Source: a bacterium
GTDB taxonomy: Bacteria; Patescibacteriota; Minisyncoccia; Phycocordibacterales; UBA10002
Assembly (NCBI GenBank): GCA_030649775.1
Contig: JAUSFR010000010.1
Coordinates: 1-39,829, forward strand
DNA: 39,829 nucleotides
Direction of reading: 5' to 3'
The notes under the pieces were generated by a model. That model saw only the letters and a program-made list of their open reading frames with translations, did not search any database and was not told where the DNA came from. Positions 7,512-28,338 of this stretch are shown here, piece by piece. Position numbers and translations under genes: made by a program. How positions within the stretch are numbered: position 1 is the stretch's first letter; every line of letters starts with the position of its first letter.

Positions 7512-7631
7512 GCTCTAAGAAAGAAAAGCTAGAAGCTCGAAGAATTATTACTTTGAATTTCTTAGGACTTCGAACTTAGTGCTTCGAGCTTGAATATCCC
7601 AATTAACTCACTTAGATAATAATAAAAAATT
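7512..7631 (+). repeat. family B spacer hairpin (rpsL-rpsG)
   Basis: AGCTCTAAGAAAGAAAAGCTAGAAGCTCGAAGAA .. TTCTTAGGACTTCGAACTTAGTGCTTCGAGCTT. AAGCTCGAAG/CTTCGAGCTT are exact complements. An A/T-rich tail runs to the ATG. Confidence 0.85.
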
Positions 7632-8102
7632 ATGCGTCGTAAGGTCAAAAACCGAAAAGAGCTCCAGCCTGATGCGATTTACAACTCGCAGAAGGTGACG
7701 AAGCTCATCAACTACTGTATGGAGGACGGTAAGAAAGAGGCCGCGCGCAAAATCGTGTTCGGAGCCTTTTTGATTATCAAAGAAAAGCTGAAGACGGAAA
7801 ATCCGCTAGAAGTGTTTGATACCGCTCTCAAAAATATCACCCCGCTGATGGAAGTCCGTTCCCGCCGTGTCGGTGGCGCGAACTACCAAGTGCCGGTTGA
7901 AGTTCGTCAGGAACGTCGTCTCGCACTTGCGTACCGCTGGCTCATTGGAGCTGCTCGCGGTAAAAAGGGAAAGCCTATGCGCGAAAAACTCGCCGAAGAG
8001 CTTATTCTCGCCTCAAAGAACGAAGGTGAAGCTGTGAAGAAGCGCGAGAACGTCCACAAGATGGCCGAGGCTAATAAGGCCTTTGCTCACTTCGCGTGGT
8101 AA
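7632..8102 (+). CDS. rpsG: 30S ribosomal protein S7
   Basis: EVRSRRVGGANYQVPVEVRQERR.ALA.RW and a C-terminal KAFAHFAW; position follows rpsL as expected. Confidence 0.95.
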   Translation: MRRKVKNRKELQPDAIYNSQKVTKLINYCMEDGKKEAARKIVFGAFLIIKEKLKTENPLEVFDTALKNITPLMEVRSRRVGGANYQVPVEVRQERRLALAYRWLIGAARGKKGKPMREKLAEELILASKNEGEAVKKRENVHKMAEANKAFAHFAW

Positions 8103-8155
8103 TTTGAGAAAGCTTATAGCTTCTAGCTGATAGCTTTTAGGGAAGACGAAGAAGA

Positions 8156-8175
8156 AGCGGGGTAACCCGTTTTTT
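8156..8175 (+). terminator. weak intrinsic terminator after rpsG
   Basis: (AG)CGGG-GTAA-CCCG followed by TTTTTT. Confidence 0.45.
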
Positions 8176-8208
8176 CGTGCTTTATCCAACCCGTTTCTTT
8201 GCGGAATA

Positions 8209-8217
8209 TGCTAAAAT
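8209..8217 (+). promoter_or_regulatory. candidate extended -10 (TGcTAAAAT) for the inserted cassette; would give a near-leaderless mRNA
   Basis: TG at 8209-10 and TAAAAT at 8212-17. The ATG at 8224 is 7 nt downstream of the -10. Confidence 0.35.
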
Positions 8218-8223
8218 ACCAAT

Positions 8224-25478: not shown

Positions 25479-25540
25479 GACCTGTAACTTTTAGTTTGAA
25501 ATTTCTTCGAACTTAGAGCTTAGAACTTCGAGTTTACACC
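25449..25540 (+). repeat. family B spacer hairpin (rplO-secY); left arm lies inside the rplO 3' end
   Basis: CCGAAGCTAGAAACTCGAAGAACTCTTAA (the coding tail KPEARNSKNS*) .. TTCTTCGAACTTAGAGCTTAGAACTTCGAGTTT. Confidence 0.8.
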
Positions 25541-26809
25541 ATGGATTTCATACAAAAACTCAAACTGGTATGGCATGACGGGAGCTTACGCAAGCGCCTG
25601 CTCTTCATCGGCCTCATGCTCGTCGTCTTTCGCCTGCTCTCCTCTATTCCCATTCCCGGTATTGATATTCTGAAACTTGAGAGTTTTCTCGCGGATAACC
25701 AATTCTTCGGGCTTTTGAACATTTTCTCGGGTGGCGGACTTTCCAACCTTTCCATCGTGATGCTCGGTGTTGGTCCCTACATTACCGCATCCATCATTAT
25801 GCAACTCCTGACGATGATGTCGCCCAAACTTAAGGCGATGTATCAGGAAGAAGGCGAGTCGGGTCGCGCGAAATTCGCACAGTACTCGCGTATTTTGAGC
25901 GTTCCACTTTCACTCATCCAGGCTTTCAGCTTTCTTATCATACTTTCCCGTCAAGGAATCTTTACCGACCTCGGGCTGTTTTCTACCATTACCAATGTCC
26001 TTATCGTGACGGGAGGTTCGCTCCTCGTGATGTGGATAGGTGAGCTTATGACCGAATACGGTATCGGCAATGGCACGTCACTCATTATTTTCGCTGGTAT
26101 CGTGGCCTCGCTTCCTTCGGCACTCGCGCAACTTGCCTTTACTTTTGACCCGAGTCAAATTCCGATGTATCTCGGTTTCCTCGTTCTCGCTCTTCTCGTG
26201 GTGTGGGGGGTGGTTGTGGTTACCGAAGCCGAACGCCCGATTCCCGTCACCTACGCGAAGCGGGTACGAGGGATGAAGGTCTATGGCGGGGTATCAACCT
26301 ACCTTCCGCTTCGGGTCAATCAAGCTGGAGTGATTCCGATTATTTTCGCACTCTCCATTATGCTGTTTCCGCAGATGGTGGCCACGGTGCTCGGCGTTTT
26401 TGATAATGCCATTCTCCACTCACTCTCTTCATTCTTGACTACCGTGTTCGCGAACCAGTGGGTATACTCCATTATGTACTTTATCCTCGTGTTCCTCTTT
26501 ACGTATTTCTACACGGCCGTTACCTTTGACCCACTCACCATTTCCACCAATCTTCAGAAGAACGGCGCCTTCATTCCCGGTGTTCGTCCTGGTGAATCAA
26601 CCTCTACCTATATCGCTTCGGTCGTGACCCGCATCACGCTCGTCGGCGCGACCTTCCTCGCGGTTGTCGCCGTGCTCCCGCTTGCTATGCGAGGCATTAC
26701 GGGTGACCAGTCGCTTGCGATTGGCGGTACCGCGCTCCTCATCGTGGTCTCTGTGGTACTTGATTTCATCAAAAAGATTGACGCGCAGGTGTCGATGAGG
26801 GAATATTAA
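25541..26809 (+). CDS. secY: preprotein translocase subunit SecY
   Basis: 422 aa and polytopic. It contains IPIPGIDI.., GVGPYITASIIMQLL and GIGNGTSLIIFAGI. Confidence 0.96.
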   Translation: MDFIQKLKLVWHDGSLRKRLLFIGLMLVVFRLLSSIPIPGIDILKLESFLADNQFFGLLNIFSGGGLSNLSIVMLGVGPYITASIIMQLLTMMSPKLKAMYQEEGESGRAKFAQYSRILSVPLSLIQAFSFLIILSRQGIFTDLGLFSTITNVLIVTGGSLLVMWIGELMTEYGIGNGTSLIIFAGIVASLPSALAQLAFTFDPSQIPMYLGFLVLALLVVWGVVVVTEAERPIPVTYAKRVRGMKVYGGVSTYLPLRVNQAGVIPIIFALSIMLFPQMVATVLGVFDNAILHSLSSFLTTVFANQWVYSIMYFILVFLFTYFYTAVTFDPLTISTNLQKNGAFIPGVRPGESTSTYIASVVTRITLVGATFLAVVAVLPLAMRGITGDQSLAIGGTALLIVVSVVLDFIKKIDAQVSMREY

Positions 26810-26891
26810 ACAGGCACTAGGAATTAGGCGCTAGGCACTAGGGAAGAAATCCTAATCAAGCCTAGAGCCTAGAGCCTAGAGCCTAGAGCCT
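26810..26891 (+). repeat. family A spacer hairpin (secY-adk) ending in (CTAGAGC)x4
   Basis: GGCACTAGGAATTAGGCGCTAGGCACTAGGG .. then CTAGAGC x4 at 26863-26890, one base before the adk ATG. Confidence 0.85.
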
Positions 26892-27482
26892 ATGACTCCC
26901 TACACTTTTATTTTTGCCGGGCCGTCGGGAAGCGGAAAGGGAACGCAGGTGACGCTTCTCAAGGAGTACCTCCTGAAGAAAACCCCCGAAATTCCGCAGT
27001 TTAGCTCCTACACGGGAGACGGCTTTCGCGCGCTTATGAATGGCACCACGCTCGCCTCAAAGCTCGCGAAGGAGATACAGGACGCGGGACTGCTTCAGCC
27101 GGAGTTTCTCGCCATTTCCATCTGGGCGGACAATCTCATCAAAAACGTGACCGGAAAGGAGCATCTCATTATTGACGGCTCTCCTCGAAAGCCTGCCGAG
27201 GCGATTGTGCTTGACTCGGCGATGCAATTTTTCAAACGTGACCTCATACATATCATTGAAGTGAACGTGTCGGATGCCGAAACAAAGCGGAGACTCCTTT
27301 TGCGTGCTCGTCATGACGATACCGAAGAGGGAATTGGGCGTAGACTCGGTTGGTACAAGACGGAGGTGCTTCCCGCAGTTGAATATCTAAAAGGTCAGCC
27401 CAGCTACCGCTTCCACAGCATTAACGGCGAGCAGACACCCGCAGAGGTGCACGAAGCGATTATGAAATCGCTTAACCTATAA
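26892..27482 (+). CDS. adk: adenylate kinase
   Basis: P-loop FAGPSGSGKGTQ. The sequence also has ..LIIDGSPR.. and RARHDDTEE.I.RRL. It sits after secY. Confidence 0.88.
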   Translation: MTPYTFIFAGPSGSGKGTQVTLLKEYLLKKTPEIPQFSSYTGDGFRALMNGTTLASKLAKEIQDAGLLQPEFLAISIWADNLIKNVTGKEHLIIDGSPRKPAEAIVLDSAMQFFKRDLIHIIEVNVSDAETKRRLLLRARHDDTEEGIGRRLGWYKTEVLPAVEYLKGQPSYRFHSINGEQTPAEVHEAIMKSLNL

Positions 27483-27576
27483 GCCCTAAGTTCTAAGCTC
27501 GAAGAAGTTTTAAGCACTGAAATTTTTTAGATTAAGAAATAATTTATTCTTCGAGCTTCAAGCTTATTACTTTCTT
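27483..27576 (+). repeat. family B spacer hairpin (adk-pyrH)
   Basis: CCTAAGTTCTAAGCTCGAAGAA .. TTCTTCGAGCTTCAAGCTT. Confidence 0.8.
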
Positions 27577-28257
27577 ATGTTTTCACCTGCTATCATTTCT
27601 CTTGGCGGTTCAATCGTTATTCCCGATGCGATTGACACTGTGTTCATAAAAAGTTTTCGCGAGCTTATCCTGAAACATGTCTCGGCGGGAGAGCGCTTTA
27701 TCATCACCGTTGGTGGAGGAAAGGTGTGCAGGCGGTACCAAGAAGCTTCCAAAGAGCTAGGTACGCCGTCTCAGGAGGAGCTGGATTGGATAGGTATTCG
27801 CGCGCTTATGCTTAACGCACAGCTGATTCGCTCGATATTCGGTGAAGTAGCTCACGGTACCGTTATCATTGAACCGAGCGAGCTCCACAGCGCAACCACC
27901 CCCGTGGTTATTTTTGGTGCGAAAGCTCCGGGACACAGCACTGATTTTGATGCAGTGGAGGCGGCACATGAAACCGGCGCAAAACGGGTTATCAACCTTT
28001 CCAATATTGATTATGCGTACGACAAAGACCCGCGTGAGTTTCCTGACGCGAAGAAAATAGAGAAAACAAATTGGAAGGAGTTTCGGAACATTCTTCCTGC
28101 CGAGTGGAGTCCGGGTGTAAACGCGCCCTTTGACCCCGTCGCGGCGAAGCGCGCCGAAGAACTCGGTCTTGAAGTTGCCATTATGAATGGGAAAAATCTC
28201 CTGAATCTGGAGCACTATCTTTCGGGAGGGGAGTTTAAGGGAACCGTCATAAGATAG
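27577..28257 (+). CDS. pyrH: UMP kinase, archaeal-type (amino-acid kinase fold, ~226 aa)
   Basis: IISLGGSIVIP..DFIKSF..L......F.ITVGGGK..R.Y......LG......DWIGI.A..LNA.L......; PGHSTD..A...A...GA..V..LSN.D..Y..DP...PDAKKI. This is collinear with the archaeal PyrH layout as I recall it from memory. Confidence 0.8.
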   Translation: MFSPAIISLGGSIVIPDAIDTVFIKSFRELILKHVSAGERFIITVGGGKVCRRYQEASKELGTPSQEELDWIGIRALMLNAQLIRSIFGEVAHGTVIIEPSELHSATTPVVIFGAKAPGHSTDFDAVEAAHETGAKRVINLSNIDYAYDKDPREFPDAKKIEKTNWKEFRNILPAEWSPGVNAPFDPVAAKRAEELGLEVAIMNGKNLLNLEHYLSGGEFKGTVIR

Positions 28258-28338
28258 GCACTAGACATTAGGCACTAGGCACTAGGGAAGACCCTTGGTT
28301 TCTAGAGCCTAGAGCCTAGAGCCTAGAGCCTAGAGCCT
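28258..28338 (+). repeat. family A spacer hairpin (pyrH-map) ending in (CTAGAGC)x5
   Basis: GCACTAGACATTAGGCACTAGGCACTAGGG .. then CTAGAGC x5 at 28302-28336, two bases before the map ATG. Confidence 0.85.

Follow-up and report, generated by a model that had tools for sequence, protein, structure and literature searches.

Hairpin elements with rapid turnover, similar to known palindromic and heptamer repeats of intergenic DNA, in a ribosomal-protein gene cluster of the candidate phyla radiation

Hairpin elements at the ribosomal-protein gene junctions

The window, the whole stretch of 39,829 nt that was analysed, comes from an organism that S3 homology identifies as Candidatus Taylorbacteria-like (candidate phyla radiation). 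Nearly all gaps between its ribosomal-protein genes are filled by a hairpin of ~80–160 nt, the arms of which are tandem 7-base units. Between 7512 and 28338, imperfect hairpins occupy 22 junctions or leaders and belong to four families, namely A (ten copies), B (six), C (three) and D (three); the 22 spacer hairpins and four families described by the first-pass annotation were all found where it had placed them. Its view of the region as one operon is rejected, as at least six transcription units are present. The elements are not restricted to ribosomal-protein operons, since some were found outside them. The individual features are as follows:

15045–15143, plus: family A hairpin, rplD–rplW; (AGGCNCT)4, apex GGAAAGA, then (CCTAGAG)n; dG −46.9 kcal/mol, z −5.5
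15528–15612, plus: family A hairpin, rplW–rplB; the first unit of the element is the rplW TAG stop codon
18591–18693, plus: family A hairpin, rpsC–rplP; 92% identity to the L164 rpsH–rplF copy (L164 coding DNA ~80% identical to the window)
19687–19769, plus: family A hairpin, rpsQ–rplN; L127 ortholog shorter by exactly one 7-nt unit in the 5′ arm
22248–22343, plus: family A hairpin, rpsN leader, downstream of the promoter TTGACT-17-TAGTAT (22199–22227)
22530–22637, plus: family A hairpin, rpsN–rpsH
23025–23123, plus: family A hairpin, rpsH–rplF
24098–24182, plus: family A hairpin, rplR–rpsE; subfamily shared with the 19687 copy
26810–26891, plus: family A hairpin, secY–adk; 3′ arm (CCTAGAG) x4.9, adjoining the ATG
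28258–28338, plus: family A hairpin, amino-acid-kinase-family gene to map; 3′ arm (CTAGAGC) x5.4, adjoining the ATG
7512–7631, plus: family B hairpin (GAAGCTC / CTTCGAG), rpsL–rpsG; stem ~7527–7592
11664–11807, plus: family B-like long hairpin, distal part of the fusA–tuf spacer; z −6.5
14282–14384, plus: family B hairpin, rplC–rplD; weak fold, z −0.3
23658–23749, plus: family B hairpin, rplF–rplR
25445–25540, plus: family B hairpin, rplO–secY; 5′ arm inside rplO, as the C-terminal tail of L15
27483–27576, plus: family B hairpin, adk to the amino-acid-kinase-family gene
13005–13113, plus: family C hairpin (GCGAATG / CATTCGC, unit spacing 9–12 nt), tuf–rpsJ
20142–20256, plus: family C hairpin, rplN–rplX; same junction only 5 nt in the relative L129
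20557–20671, plus: family C hairpin, rplX–rplE; matches the 20142 copy
17826–17915, plus: family D hairpin (AAACACC / TTGGTKA), rplV–rpsC; 5′ arm inside rplV, as the L22 tail
19150–19253, plus: family D hairpin, rplP–rpmC
24836–24998, plus: family D hairpin, rpsE–rplO; 5′ arm inside rpsE, as the S5 tail
2745–2845, minus: family B hairpin, rpmB leader, ending 9 nt before the ATG at 2738
2451–2498, minus: family A-type 5′ arm alone, directly past the rpmB stop, then a perfect 20-bp non-heptad hairpin
8107–8141, plus: one-armed (AGCTNAT)n array past the rpsG stop, then a terminator; unit family dominant in relatives
9385–9420, plus: one-armed (TAATTCA) x4 array adjoining the fusA ATG
35268–35315, plus: one-armed (TAGGTGY / TAGCTGT) array past a stop codon, then a terminator
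38185–38239, plus: leader of CATTCGY units (3′-arm type only), directly upstream of the ndk ATG
38840–38920, plus: family D hairpin past ndk, outside the ribosomal-protein cluster; z −6.8

Occupied ribosomal-protein junctions number 22 of ~30, a density above that of the rest of the window. The lag-7 signal comprised 31 segments (1218 nt) against a mean of 0.31 in 200 local shuffles, and the other lags from 3 to 13 gave 0–3 segments each, so the periodicity is specific to 7. TRF placed period-7 arrays at most junctions, and the (CTAGAGC) arrays noted earlier were confirmed, with 5.4 perfect copies at 28302–28339 and 4.9 at 26859–26892. Although the window is 83% coding, 88% of the period-7 bases are non-coding, and the remainder fall at the very ends of coding sequences. 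Of the 20827 nt of the cluster, 2305 (11%) belong to the elements, in agreement with the tenth estimated before, and the 4-bp palindromes on which the units had been said to be built (CTAG, AGCT and TCGA) are present in them. The 4-nt rpmC–rpsQ junction was also recovered. Two descriptions needed correction. Family C is not heptad-built, given its unit spacing, and the minus-strand copy at 2451–2498 does have an A-type arm but is not a full element. Four spacers in the range have no heptad hairpin (rpsG–orfA, orfC–fusA, rpsJ–rplC and rpsS–rplV).

Copying and turnover of the elements among relatives

The copies at 20142 and 20557 match at 113 of 115 positions, exactly as had been claimed. Those at 19687 and 24098 are of one subfamily and agree at 74 of ~83 positions. 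In L003, three 85-nt near-identical copies stand at neighbouring junctions. Loops and the order of unit variants are shared over the full length of copies, within and between genomes, and these matches, with a period-7 signal far above shuffles, uphold dispersed homologous elements over chance low complexity. Whole elements are copied from one junction to another of the same genome.

Family A copies in different genomes are 81–92% identical, against 67–82% for the flanking ribosomal-protein DNA, a figure taken from the best of the 10 window copies and inflated by the repetitive arms; these matches usually lie at non-orthologous junctions. The core TAGG(G/A)AAGA...TCTTCCTA is common to the A and AGCT families and occurs in relatives down to 72% S3 identity. 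Clean (CCTAGAG)n arrays are found 0–10 nt upstream of the ATG in several Patescibacteria lineages, and arrays of the heptad AGGCNCT / CCTAGAG also in distant phyla. The 3′ arms are homogeneous internally yet different from copy to copy.

Relatives keep the architecture with different units, including 8-nt ones (L189 has period 8 in place of 7), and carry between 0 and 17 segments per 10 kb. The rpsC–rplP junction holds three different families in three relatives of 94–97% S3 identity. One member of that group, at 94% S3 identity, has empty junctions of 1–8 nt, and the relative L190 is free of elements, its junctions being tight throughout. These comparisons indicate that elements are gained, lost and replaced among close relatives. 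Arm length shifts by whole units through replication slippage; at one shared junction, the window copy is longer than that of L127 by exactly one unit. Elements recur in independent assemblies and are therefore real, which excludes an assembly artefact. The one pair of empty and filled sites that could be used showed neither a target-site duplication nor a terminal signature, and a transposase or other mobilising gene was not found in the window.

Folding, placement and candidate explanations

The elements sit in stop-to-start gaps or leaders and are co-oriented with the gene. In most copies the stem starts 0–7 nt past the stop codon and ends 0–17 nt before the ATG, which bears out the stop-to-start span first described. 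Hairpin energies range from −13 to −50 kcal/mol, and the z-scores against dinucleotide shuffles are mostly −3 to −10, with two weak copies at −0.3 and −0.8. Stop codons close all three frames of most elements, with no strand asymmetry (150 vs 154). The elements are not terminators, as had been stated; none has a U-tract, and the canonical terminators (8151–8176, 9356–9377, 13509–13528, 16476–16506 and 21322–21346) do not coincide with any of them. The 41 family A copies compared, which come from many assemblies, are locked to the downstream gene in their orientation. The variable base is A in 73% of units in the ATG-proximal arm, and its partner T makes up only 28% of variable bases in the stop-proximal arm, a bias that upholds the fixed arm order. 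Co-orientation and conservation above the flanking coding DNA fit a selected RNA function equally well.

Selected RNA devices that punctuate operons are a possible, if rather unlikely, explanation. Each would serve either as a signal for processing or stability (e.g. an RNase III site or a protective 5′ or 3′ stem-loop) or as a translational coupler or insulator; in the latter case, the stop and the next AUG would meet at the foot of a single stem, in mRNAs without Shine-Dalgarno sites. Such devices would account for the gene-locked orientation, the stop-to-AUG stem, the (CCTAGAG)n arrays before ATG in several lineages, the conservation and the hairpin shape retained across differing sequence families. 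They would also fit the enrichment of ribosomal-protein and translation genes (~19 of the 35 genes downstream of elements), the missing Shine-Dalgarno motif (33 of 34 window genes) and a tendency of 3′ arms to be purer than 5′ arms (24 vs 13, p=0.035). However, the RNA-level role put forward in the first-pass annotation is not borne out: sense and antisense folds do not differ in stability (13 of 24, p=0.9), and predicted start-site accessibility is 0.535 here and 0.523 in an element-free relative. No compensatory change was seen, and lost or decayed arm units, such as the apical one, stay uncompensated. Hairpins also occur in leaders without an upstream cistron, half-elements exist, one junction may hold different families in different relatives, and the empty junctions and the element-free relative point to dispensability.

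An action at the DNA level is improbable. The arrays would either bind a DNA-binding or nucleoid protein at periodic sites or serve as hot spots of cruciform formation or recombination, and the palindromic cores CTAG, AGCT and TCGA would be what is recognised. The equal hairpin potential of both strands, the palindromes within units, the recurrence of the heptad arrays in distant phyla and the two large gaps of the cluster, which are recurrent foreign-gene insertion sites, are consistent with it, but placement and orientation track genes and no visible DNA landmark, units vary by genome (down to the period of 8 in L189), and no candidate protein was identified. Least probable is pure local mutation, in which each junction, with whole elements never copied, would build up its own arrays through polymerase slippage and inverted template switching; in most bacterial genomes examined, heptanucleotides reportedly form the most abundant class of long simple sequence repeats, a finding attributed to polymerase slippage (PMC4679880, PMC4692102), and whole-unit indels and internally homogeneous 3′ arms agree with it, but it is largely refuted because independent growth cannot give full-length homology of loops and unit order at different junctions.

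We lean towards dispensable, self-propagating short-unit palindromic repeats, tolerated as self-folding. They probably belong to a superfamily of non-coding palindromic repeats that spans the lineage and has arms of tandem 7–8-nt units. If such a replicator has a conserved master sequence, family A identity above that of flanking DNA is to be expected. The elements would be transcribed within the polycistronic mRNA, where an insert of ~100 nt may close on itself as an imperfect hairpin, leaving the last 0–17 nt and the start codon as accessible as in relatives that lack elements. Folding would hold the stop codon spatially near the start codon, and insertions would be harmless because this proximity is kept in a lineage without Shine-Dalgarno sites. 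Each element would be individually dispensable, and if the mRNA is stabilised or insulated at all, this would be a by-product.

Comparison with known repeat systems

The elements are real and fast-turning-over and resemble known intergenic palindromic and heptamer repeats; a new regulatory system is not proven. The REP/BIME sequences of enterobacteria and pseudomonads are abundant imperfect extragenic palindromes, often within operons, transcribed, not terminators and with a consensus conserved genome-wide. The elements described here are likewise imperfect, extragenic or intra-operon, non-terminating palindromes. REPs are single 20–40-nt palindromes linked to RAYT transposases, whereas the arms here consist of tandem units, no RAYT transposase was found and the REP head motif is absent from the elements. 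Mycobacterial interspersed repetitive units (MIRUs) are also intercistronic, intra-operon and oriented with transcription. They are 46–101-bp direct repeats with short ORFs that overlap neighbouring stop and start codons, unlike most elements here, which are closed by stops in all three frames.

Hairpin-forming repeats invade intergenic regions of compact sponge mitochondrial genomes (PMC2800124), and the cyanobacterial STRRs (cited in PMC4692102) are heptanucleotides repeated in tandem within intergenic DNA. Both have other hosts and other sequences, and no stop-to-start hairpin form is described for the STRRs.

The earlier statement that no equivalent system had been described is overstated, since inverted heptamer pairs (PMC4692102) and heptamers upstream of starts, including in ribosomal-protein operons (PMC4679880), have been published. 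The GGGAATC heptamers of Xanthomonas (Rehm et al. 2015, PMC4692102) are tandem 7-nt units, mostly intergenic and transcribed, with 70–75 convergent (inverted), stem-loop-capable pairs per genome, and with positions conserved among species but variable lengths. The present elements share the tandem 7-nt units, intergenic location and inverted stem-loops. The Xanthomonas units are G-rich and quadruplex-forming, unlike those here, and their transcripts carry the G-rich or C-rich strand by case, with no gene-locked orientation or stop-to-start placement reported (PMC4692102); here, several unit families coexist per genome, at very high density inside ribosomal-protein operons.

TAACTGA direct repeats are shared by distant phyla (marine Beggiatoaceae, Cyanobacteria and Bacteroidetes; MacGregor 2015, PMC4679880). 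They lie a few nt upstream of starts, some inside ribosomal-protein operons and before fusA, have stop codons in all frames and precede genes mostly without ribosome-binding sites. These arrays have another unit sequence and are one-armed, with no predicted secondary structure (PMC4679880), whereas most of those here are paired into hairpins. Heptamers near starts, location in ribosomal-protein operons, a general lack of ribosome-binding sites in the genes that follow, stops in all frames and recurrence in distant phyla are common to both.

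Hairpin spacers in the ribosomal-protein cluster

Homologs of S3 place the window in Candidatus Taylorbacteria (Parcubacteria/Patescibacteria), with a top match of 97% identity. The plus strand carries rpsL, rpsG, three inserted ORFs, fusA, tuf, rpsJ, the S10/spc genes, secY, adk, an amino-acid-kinase-family gene and map; no tRNA genes were found in the window. The strong terminators and the promoters listed here indicate that the cluster comprises at least six transcription units and is not a single operon.

Transcription signals of the cluster (terminators from a terminator scan)
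8151-8176, strong terminator
9356-9377, strong terminator
13509-13528, strong terminator
16476-16506, strong terminator
21322-21346, strong terminator
16796-16825, promoter, TTGACT-17/18-TAGTAT
22199-22227, promoter, TTGACT-17/18-TAGTAT

At rplB-rpsS (16471-16991) and rplE-rpsN (21236-22343), wide gaps separate the genes and contain bidirectional terminators together with fresh TTGACT...TAGTAT promoters; in relatives the same gaps contain unrelated cargo genes (methyltransferase, MerR, two-component genes and AAA_28). The ORFs inserted between rpsG and fusA (8224-9318) encode a DUF5678 protein, an aspartyl-protease-like protein and one of no known type.

Each spacer was printed and folded, and the 22 hairpin elements of the first-pass annotation were all recovered: ten of family A (AGGCNCT/CCTAGAG), six of B (GAAGCTC/CTTCGAG), three of C (GCGAATG/CATTCGC) and three of D (AAACACC/TTGGTKA). 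Four further spacers in the range are something else. Two copies do match at 113 of 115 positions, the long family A runs are perfect arrays of 5.4 and 4.9 units, and the estimate that a tenth of the region consists of elements agrees with our 11%. The proposed heptad arms are borne out by period-7 self-similarity in 31 segments (1218 nt), against 0-3 segments at lags 3-13 and an average of 0.31 in 200 local shuffles; the lag-7 count and TRF arrays both give at least three tandem 7-nt copies above chance, except in family C, whose units lie 9-12 nt apart. The supposed minus-strand copy has a family-type arm, but only one. That the elements are not terminators is supported by the scan, which puts the strong sites elsewhere, and with their ends, which read ...GCCTA-N-ATG and have no U-tract.

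All 22 hairpins bring complementary arrays together as convergent, reverse-complement arms, and most exceed dinucleotide shuffles in stability by 3-10 standard deviations. In most copies the stem begins 0-7 nt past the stop codon; its far end lies 0-17 nt ahead of the ATG, and 17 of 21 spacers are closed by stops in all three frames. Outside the cluster, a family B hairpin occupies the leader of the minus-strand rpmB, a family D hairpin lies downstream of ndk, and one-armed arrays follow stop codons or precede start codons. No curated Rfam family (ribosomal-protein leaders, ribozymes, small RNAs) reached its gathering score, and relaxing the cutoff to E<=1 yielded only four matches, all far under their own gathering scores and none of them relevant.

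Period-7 bases are 88% non-coding in a window that is 83% coding. The rest are a few nucleotides at gene ends and the last codons of rplV, rpsE and rplO, where repeat units are translated; the L22, S5 and L15 tails of relatives have other sequences and are mostly shorter.

Repeat units translated as C-terminal tails (plus strand)
17822-17876, rplV, tail of L22, ..ETPNTKHQTPTKKAK
24829-24902, rpsE, tail of S5, ..SQTPNTKSHVNTNTQETITNQ
25445-25478, rplO, tail of L15, ..KPSQKPEARNSKNS

At the other gene ends, mechanical ORF calling runs rplX (TTG 20212), rplE (TTG 20627), tuf (11742) and rpmC (19218) upstream into 3' arms; one such false N-terminus, LYIRIFYSYIRIET..., is seen twice. Translation really begins at the ATGs at 20257, 20672, 11808 and 19254, respectively. 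Automated annotations of such genomes probably carry these false N-termini.

A second, non-heptadic structured-spacer family, with no Rfam match, was observed at 17337-17504, 7000-7095 and 16937-16991, upstream of rplV, rpsL and rpsS, and in a further locus, L005 (9379-9442 and 13583-13679), upstream of rplV, rpsH, rplF and rpsE. It consists of a 5' module, TGGCTCGGCC-hairpin-GTTGCCGAACATTACCC, a variable hairpin and a 3' module, GGTGAYGATTT...AAAATCAAYC-ATG. Upstream of the rpsL leader (6768-6869) there is also a 33-nt tandem repeat in about three copies (TTTACGGGGACCTGTCCCGTGGCCGGCTTCGGC), each with small hairpins.

Turnover, orientation and distribution

Relative loci were taken around S3 homologs from 97% down to 72% identity; the Hainich and Rifle groundwater sites are among the sources of such contigs. 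Element load across relatives runs from 0 to more than 14 segments per 10 kb. They have the same architecture built from other units, such as AGCTTAT/ATAAGCT, GCGTTTA/TAAACGC and AGATTTA/TAAATCT; units are 8 nt long in L189 (TAGCTTNN), L191 mixes 7-nt and 8-nt units, and the apex TAGG(G/A)AAGA...TCTTCCTA is common to families A and AGCT. The rpsC-rplP junction carries family A in the window, a GCGAATG-type element in L127 (97% S3 identity) and an AGCTTTT-type element in L129 (94%). The rplN-rplX spacer is 5 nt in L129 versus 115 nt in the window, and in the gene table of the 94% relative three junctions measure 8, 1 and 5 nt, against about 100 nt for their counterparts in the window. L190 (78%) has no period-7 segments at all, and with few exceptions its ribosomal-protein genes are 5-30 nt apart. 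The rpsQ-rplN element, which the window shares with L127, varies in unit number between these related genomes: the difference is exactly one 7-nt unit, confined to one arm and not matched by a change in the other. By these comparisons, turnover of the elements is fast.

A pattern of 22 specified bases from the family A 5' arm matched 57 metagenome contigs, and the matches listed for a 16-mer from the 3' arm include loci from Uhrbacteria, Nomurabacteria, Minisyncoccia and other Patescibacteria. In this genome-collection scan a 16-nt query should match about 280 times by chance, so that single hits are uninformative, and only multi-hit and Patescibacteria loci were used. The latter all read (TAGGCNN)n, loop, (CCTAGAG)n, finishing 2-12 nt before an ATG. 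GC-rich contigs from outside the candidate phyla radiation, including a Longimicrobiales genome, also have AGGCNCT/CCTAGAG arrays, some of them hairpins. We observed these or AGGCTYT/AGCCCAA arrays in L060, L079 (Longimicrobiales genome), L173, L180 and L182 (unclassified GC-rich); they precede genes including rplF and glycerol kinase, and convergence and transfer are both possible.

Since a near-palindrome looks much alike on either strand, orientation was scored by arm asymmetry in 41 family A copies read toward the downstream gene. This score took the place of a crude call from open frames on the 57 metagenome loci, which was unreliable in GC-rich contigs and confounded by the near-palindrome.

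Variable base counts in the arms of 41 copies
ATG-proximal arm: A 105, C 16, G 12, T 11
stop-proximal arm: A 50, G 40, T 40, C 15

If orientation were random, the distributions in the two arms would be complementary; those observed are not, and orientation is therefore gene-locked, as the first-pass annotation had claimed. Of 35 downstream genes, about 19 are ribosomal-protein genes; among the others are groEL, ruvA, holA and genes of secretion or pilus-like type. In three Patescibacteria genomes (L149, L061 and L028), the family A hairpin stands ahead of the same secretion/pilus-like genes (M..QxFxPIKEIRxGIVVLK.. and its neighbour), a cluster that might be a vehicle for spreading family A.

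Probable repeat propagation and candidate RNA roles

The elements would best fit self-propagating, slippage-prone palindromic repeats, comparable to REP elements and inverted heptamer pairs. This reading draws on five features: the elements are dispensable, one family replaces another, indels span whole units, copies within a genome are nearly identical, and the consensus is better conserved than the coding flanks. On the last point, family A copies from different genomes share 81-92% identity, the matching copy usually lying at another junction, against 67-82% for flanking ribosomal-protein DNA, a figure that is indicative only, being the best of ten copies and helped by repetitive arms. Insertion into an intercistronic spacer may be tolerated because the elements would fold on themselves, have no U-tract, in most copies close all frames with stops, and would leave the start region open.

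A selected RNA role, in processing, stability or re-initiation across the stem base, we regard as rather unlikely. It is suggested by the gene-locked orientation and the sequence conservation. Sense and antisense strands are equally stable by minimum free energy in the G.U asymmetry test (13/24, p=0.9), with no asymmetry in stop codons (150 vs 154). Subfamily A1 gave no usable signal of compensatory covariation, its arms being almost invariant, and its apical 3' unit decays with no compensation seen. Array purity tends to be higher in the 3' arm than in the 5' arm (24 vs 13, p=0.035, among non-independent copies).

Less probable still is a required, orientation-locked punctuation system of Patescibacteria without Shine-Dalgarno sites, in which the stem would bring the stop and the next AUG together. 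Transcript processing or translational re-initiation would then depend on a dedicated reader of the stem, be it a nuclease, an RNA-binding protein or the terminating ribosome. In that case recognition by this reader would account for elements being more conserved than the coding flanks, and the system would have spread horizontally to Gemmatimonadota-like and Acidobacteriota-like contigs that carry AGGCNCT/CCTAGAG. Shine-Dalgarno-like motifs occur at 1 of 34 gene starts in the window and 3 of 23 in L190, and at no junction; their virtual absence from both the window and the element-free L190 indicates that translation begins without Shine-Dalgarno pairing in this lineage. In both, starts are preceded by A/T/C-rich runs, such as AACAT or ACTACA.

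Translational coupling by masking was rejected as a general rule, since start sites are predicted to be as accessible as in the element-free relative: the unpaired probability from -12 to +12 around starts comes to 0.535 where elements are present, against 0.523 in L190 (p=0.85). In these folding predictions the elements are structurally self-contained and leave start sites unmasked.

Candidate-phyla-radiation genomes are very small, yet about 11% of this lineage's most conserved gene cluster is repeat hairpins. If these are selfish, core translation operons of streamlined uncultivated bacteria are open to fast-evolving repeats, and tight junctions are not obligatory where Shine-Dalgarno sites are unused; if functional, they would be a simple, sequence-independent punctuation of polycistronic mRNAs. 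In practice, they break assemblies, shift gene calls through spurious upstream TTG starts and ribosomal-protein C-terminal tails, and could act as strain markers.

Comparison with known repeats

Heptanucleotide repeats are reportedly the most abundant class of long simple-sequence repeats in most genomes examined, which has been put down to polymerase slippage (PMC4679880, PMC4692102). Xanthomonas genomes have 70-75 inverted GGGAATC pairs each, capable of forming stem-loops, with conserved position and variable length; the majority of the repeats there are transcribed (PMC4692102). The present elements resemble long heptanucleotide simple-sequence repeats including inverted pairs (Mrazek 2007; Rehm 2015) in their tandem 7-nt units, convergent pairs and unit-number variation. 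They differ from the G-quadruplex GGGNATC repeats, as units such as AGGCNCT, GAAGCTC and AAACACC have no tracts of at least three G. Beggiatoaceae TAACTGA arrays lie just upstream of starts, including those of ribosomal-protein operons, mostly without ribosome-binding sites (PMC4679880); their units differ, and only the geometry of arrays abutting an ATG with no ribosome-binding site is common to both.

As in REP/BIME, the elements are abundant extragenic imperfect palindromes with a conserved consensus. REP/BIME have an associated RAYT (TnpA-REP) gene in the genome; Pfam found no transposase or RAYT gene among the window proteins. Unlike MITEs, they show no target-site duplication at rplN-rplX, the single usable pair of empty and filled sites; unlike intrinsic terminators, they do not combine a GC-rich stem with a U-tract; and unlike MIRU, whose internal short ORF overlaps the neighbouring stop and start codons, 17 of 21 are closed in all frames. 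We found no published description of heptad elements in candidate-phyla-radiation bacteria. The elements are unusual in four things: how densely they fill the core translation cluster of a reduced genome, their multiple families, their stop-to-start geometry and their strict orientation.
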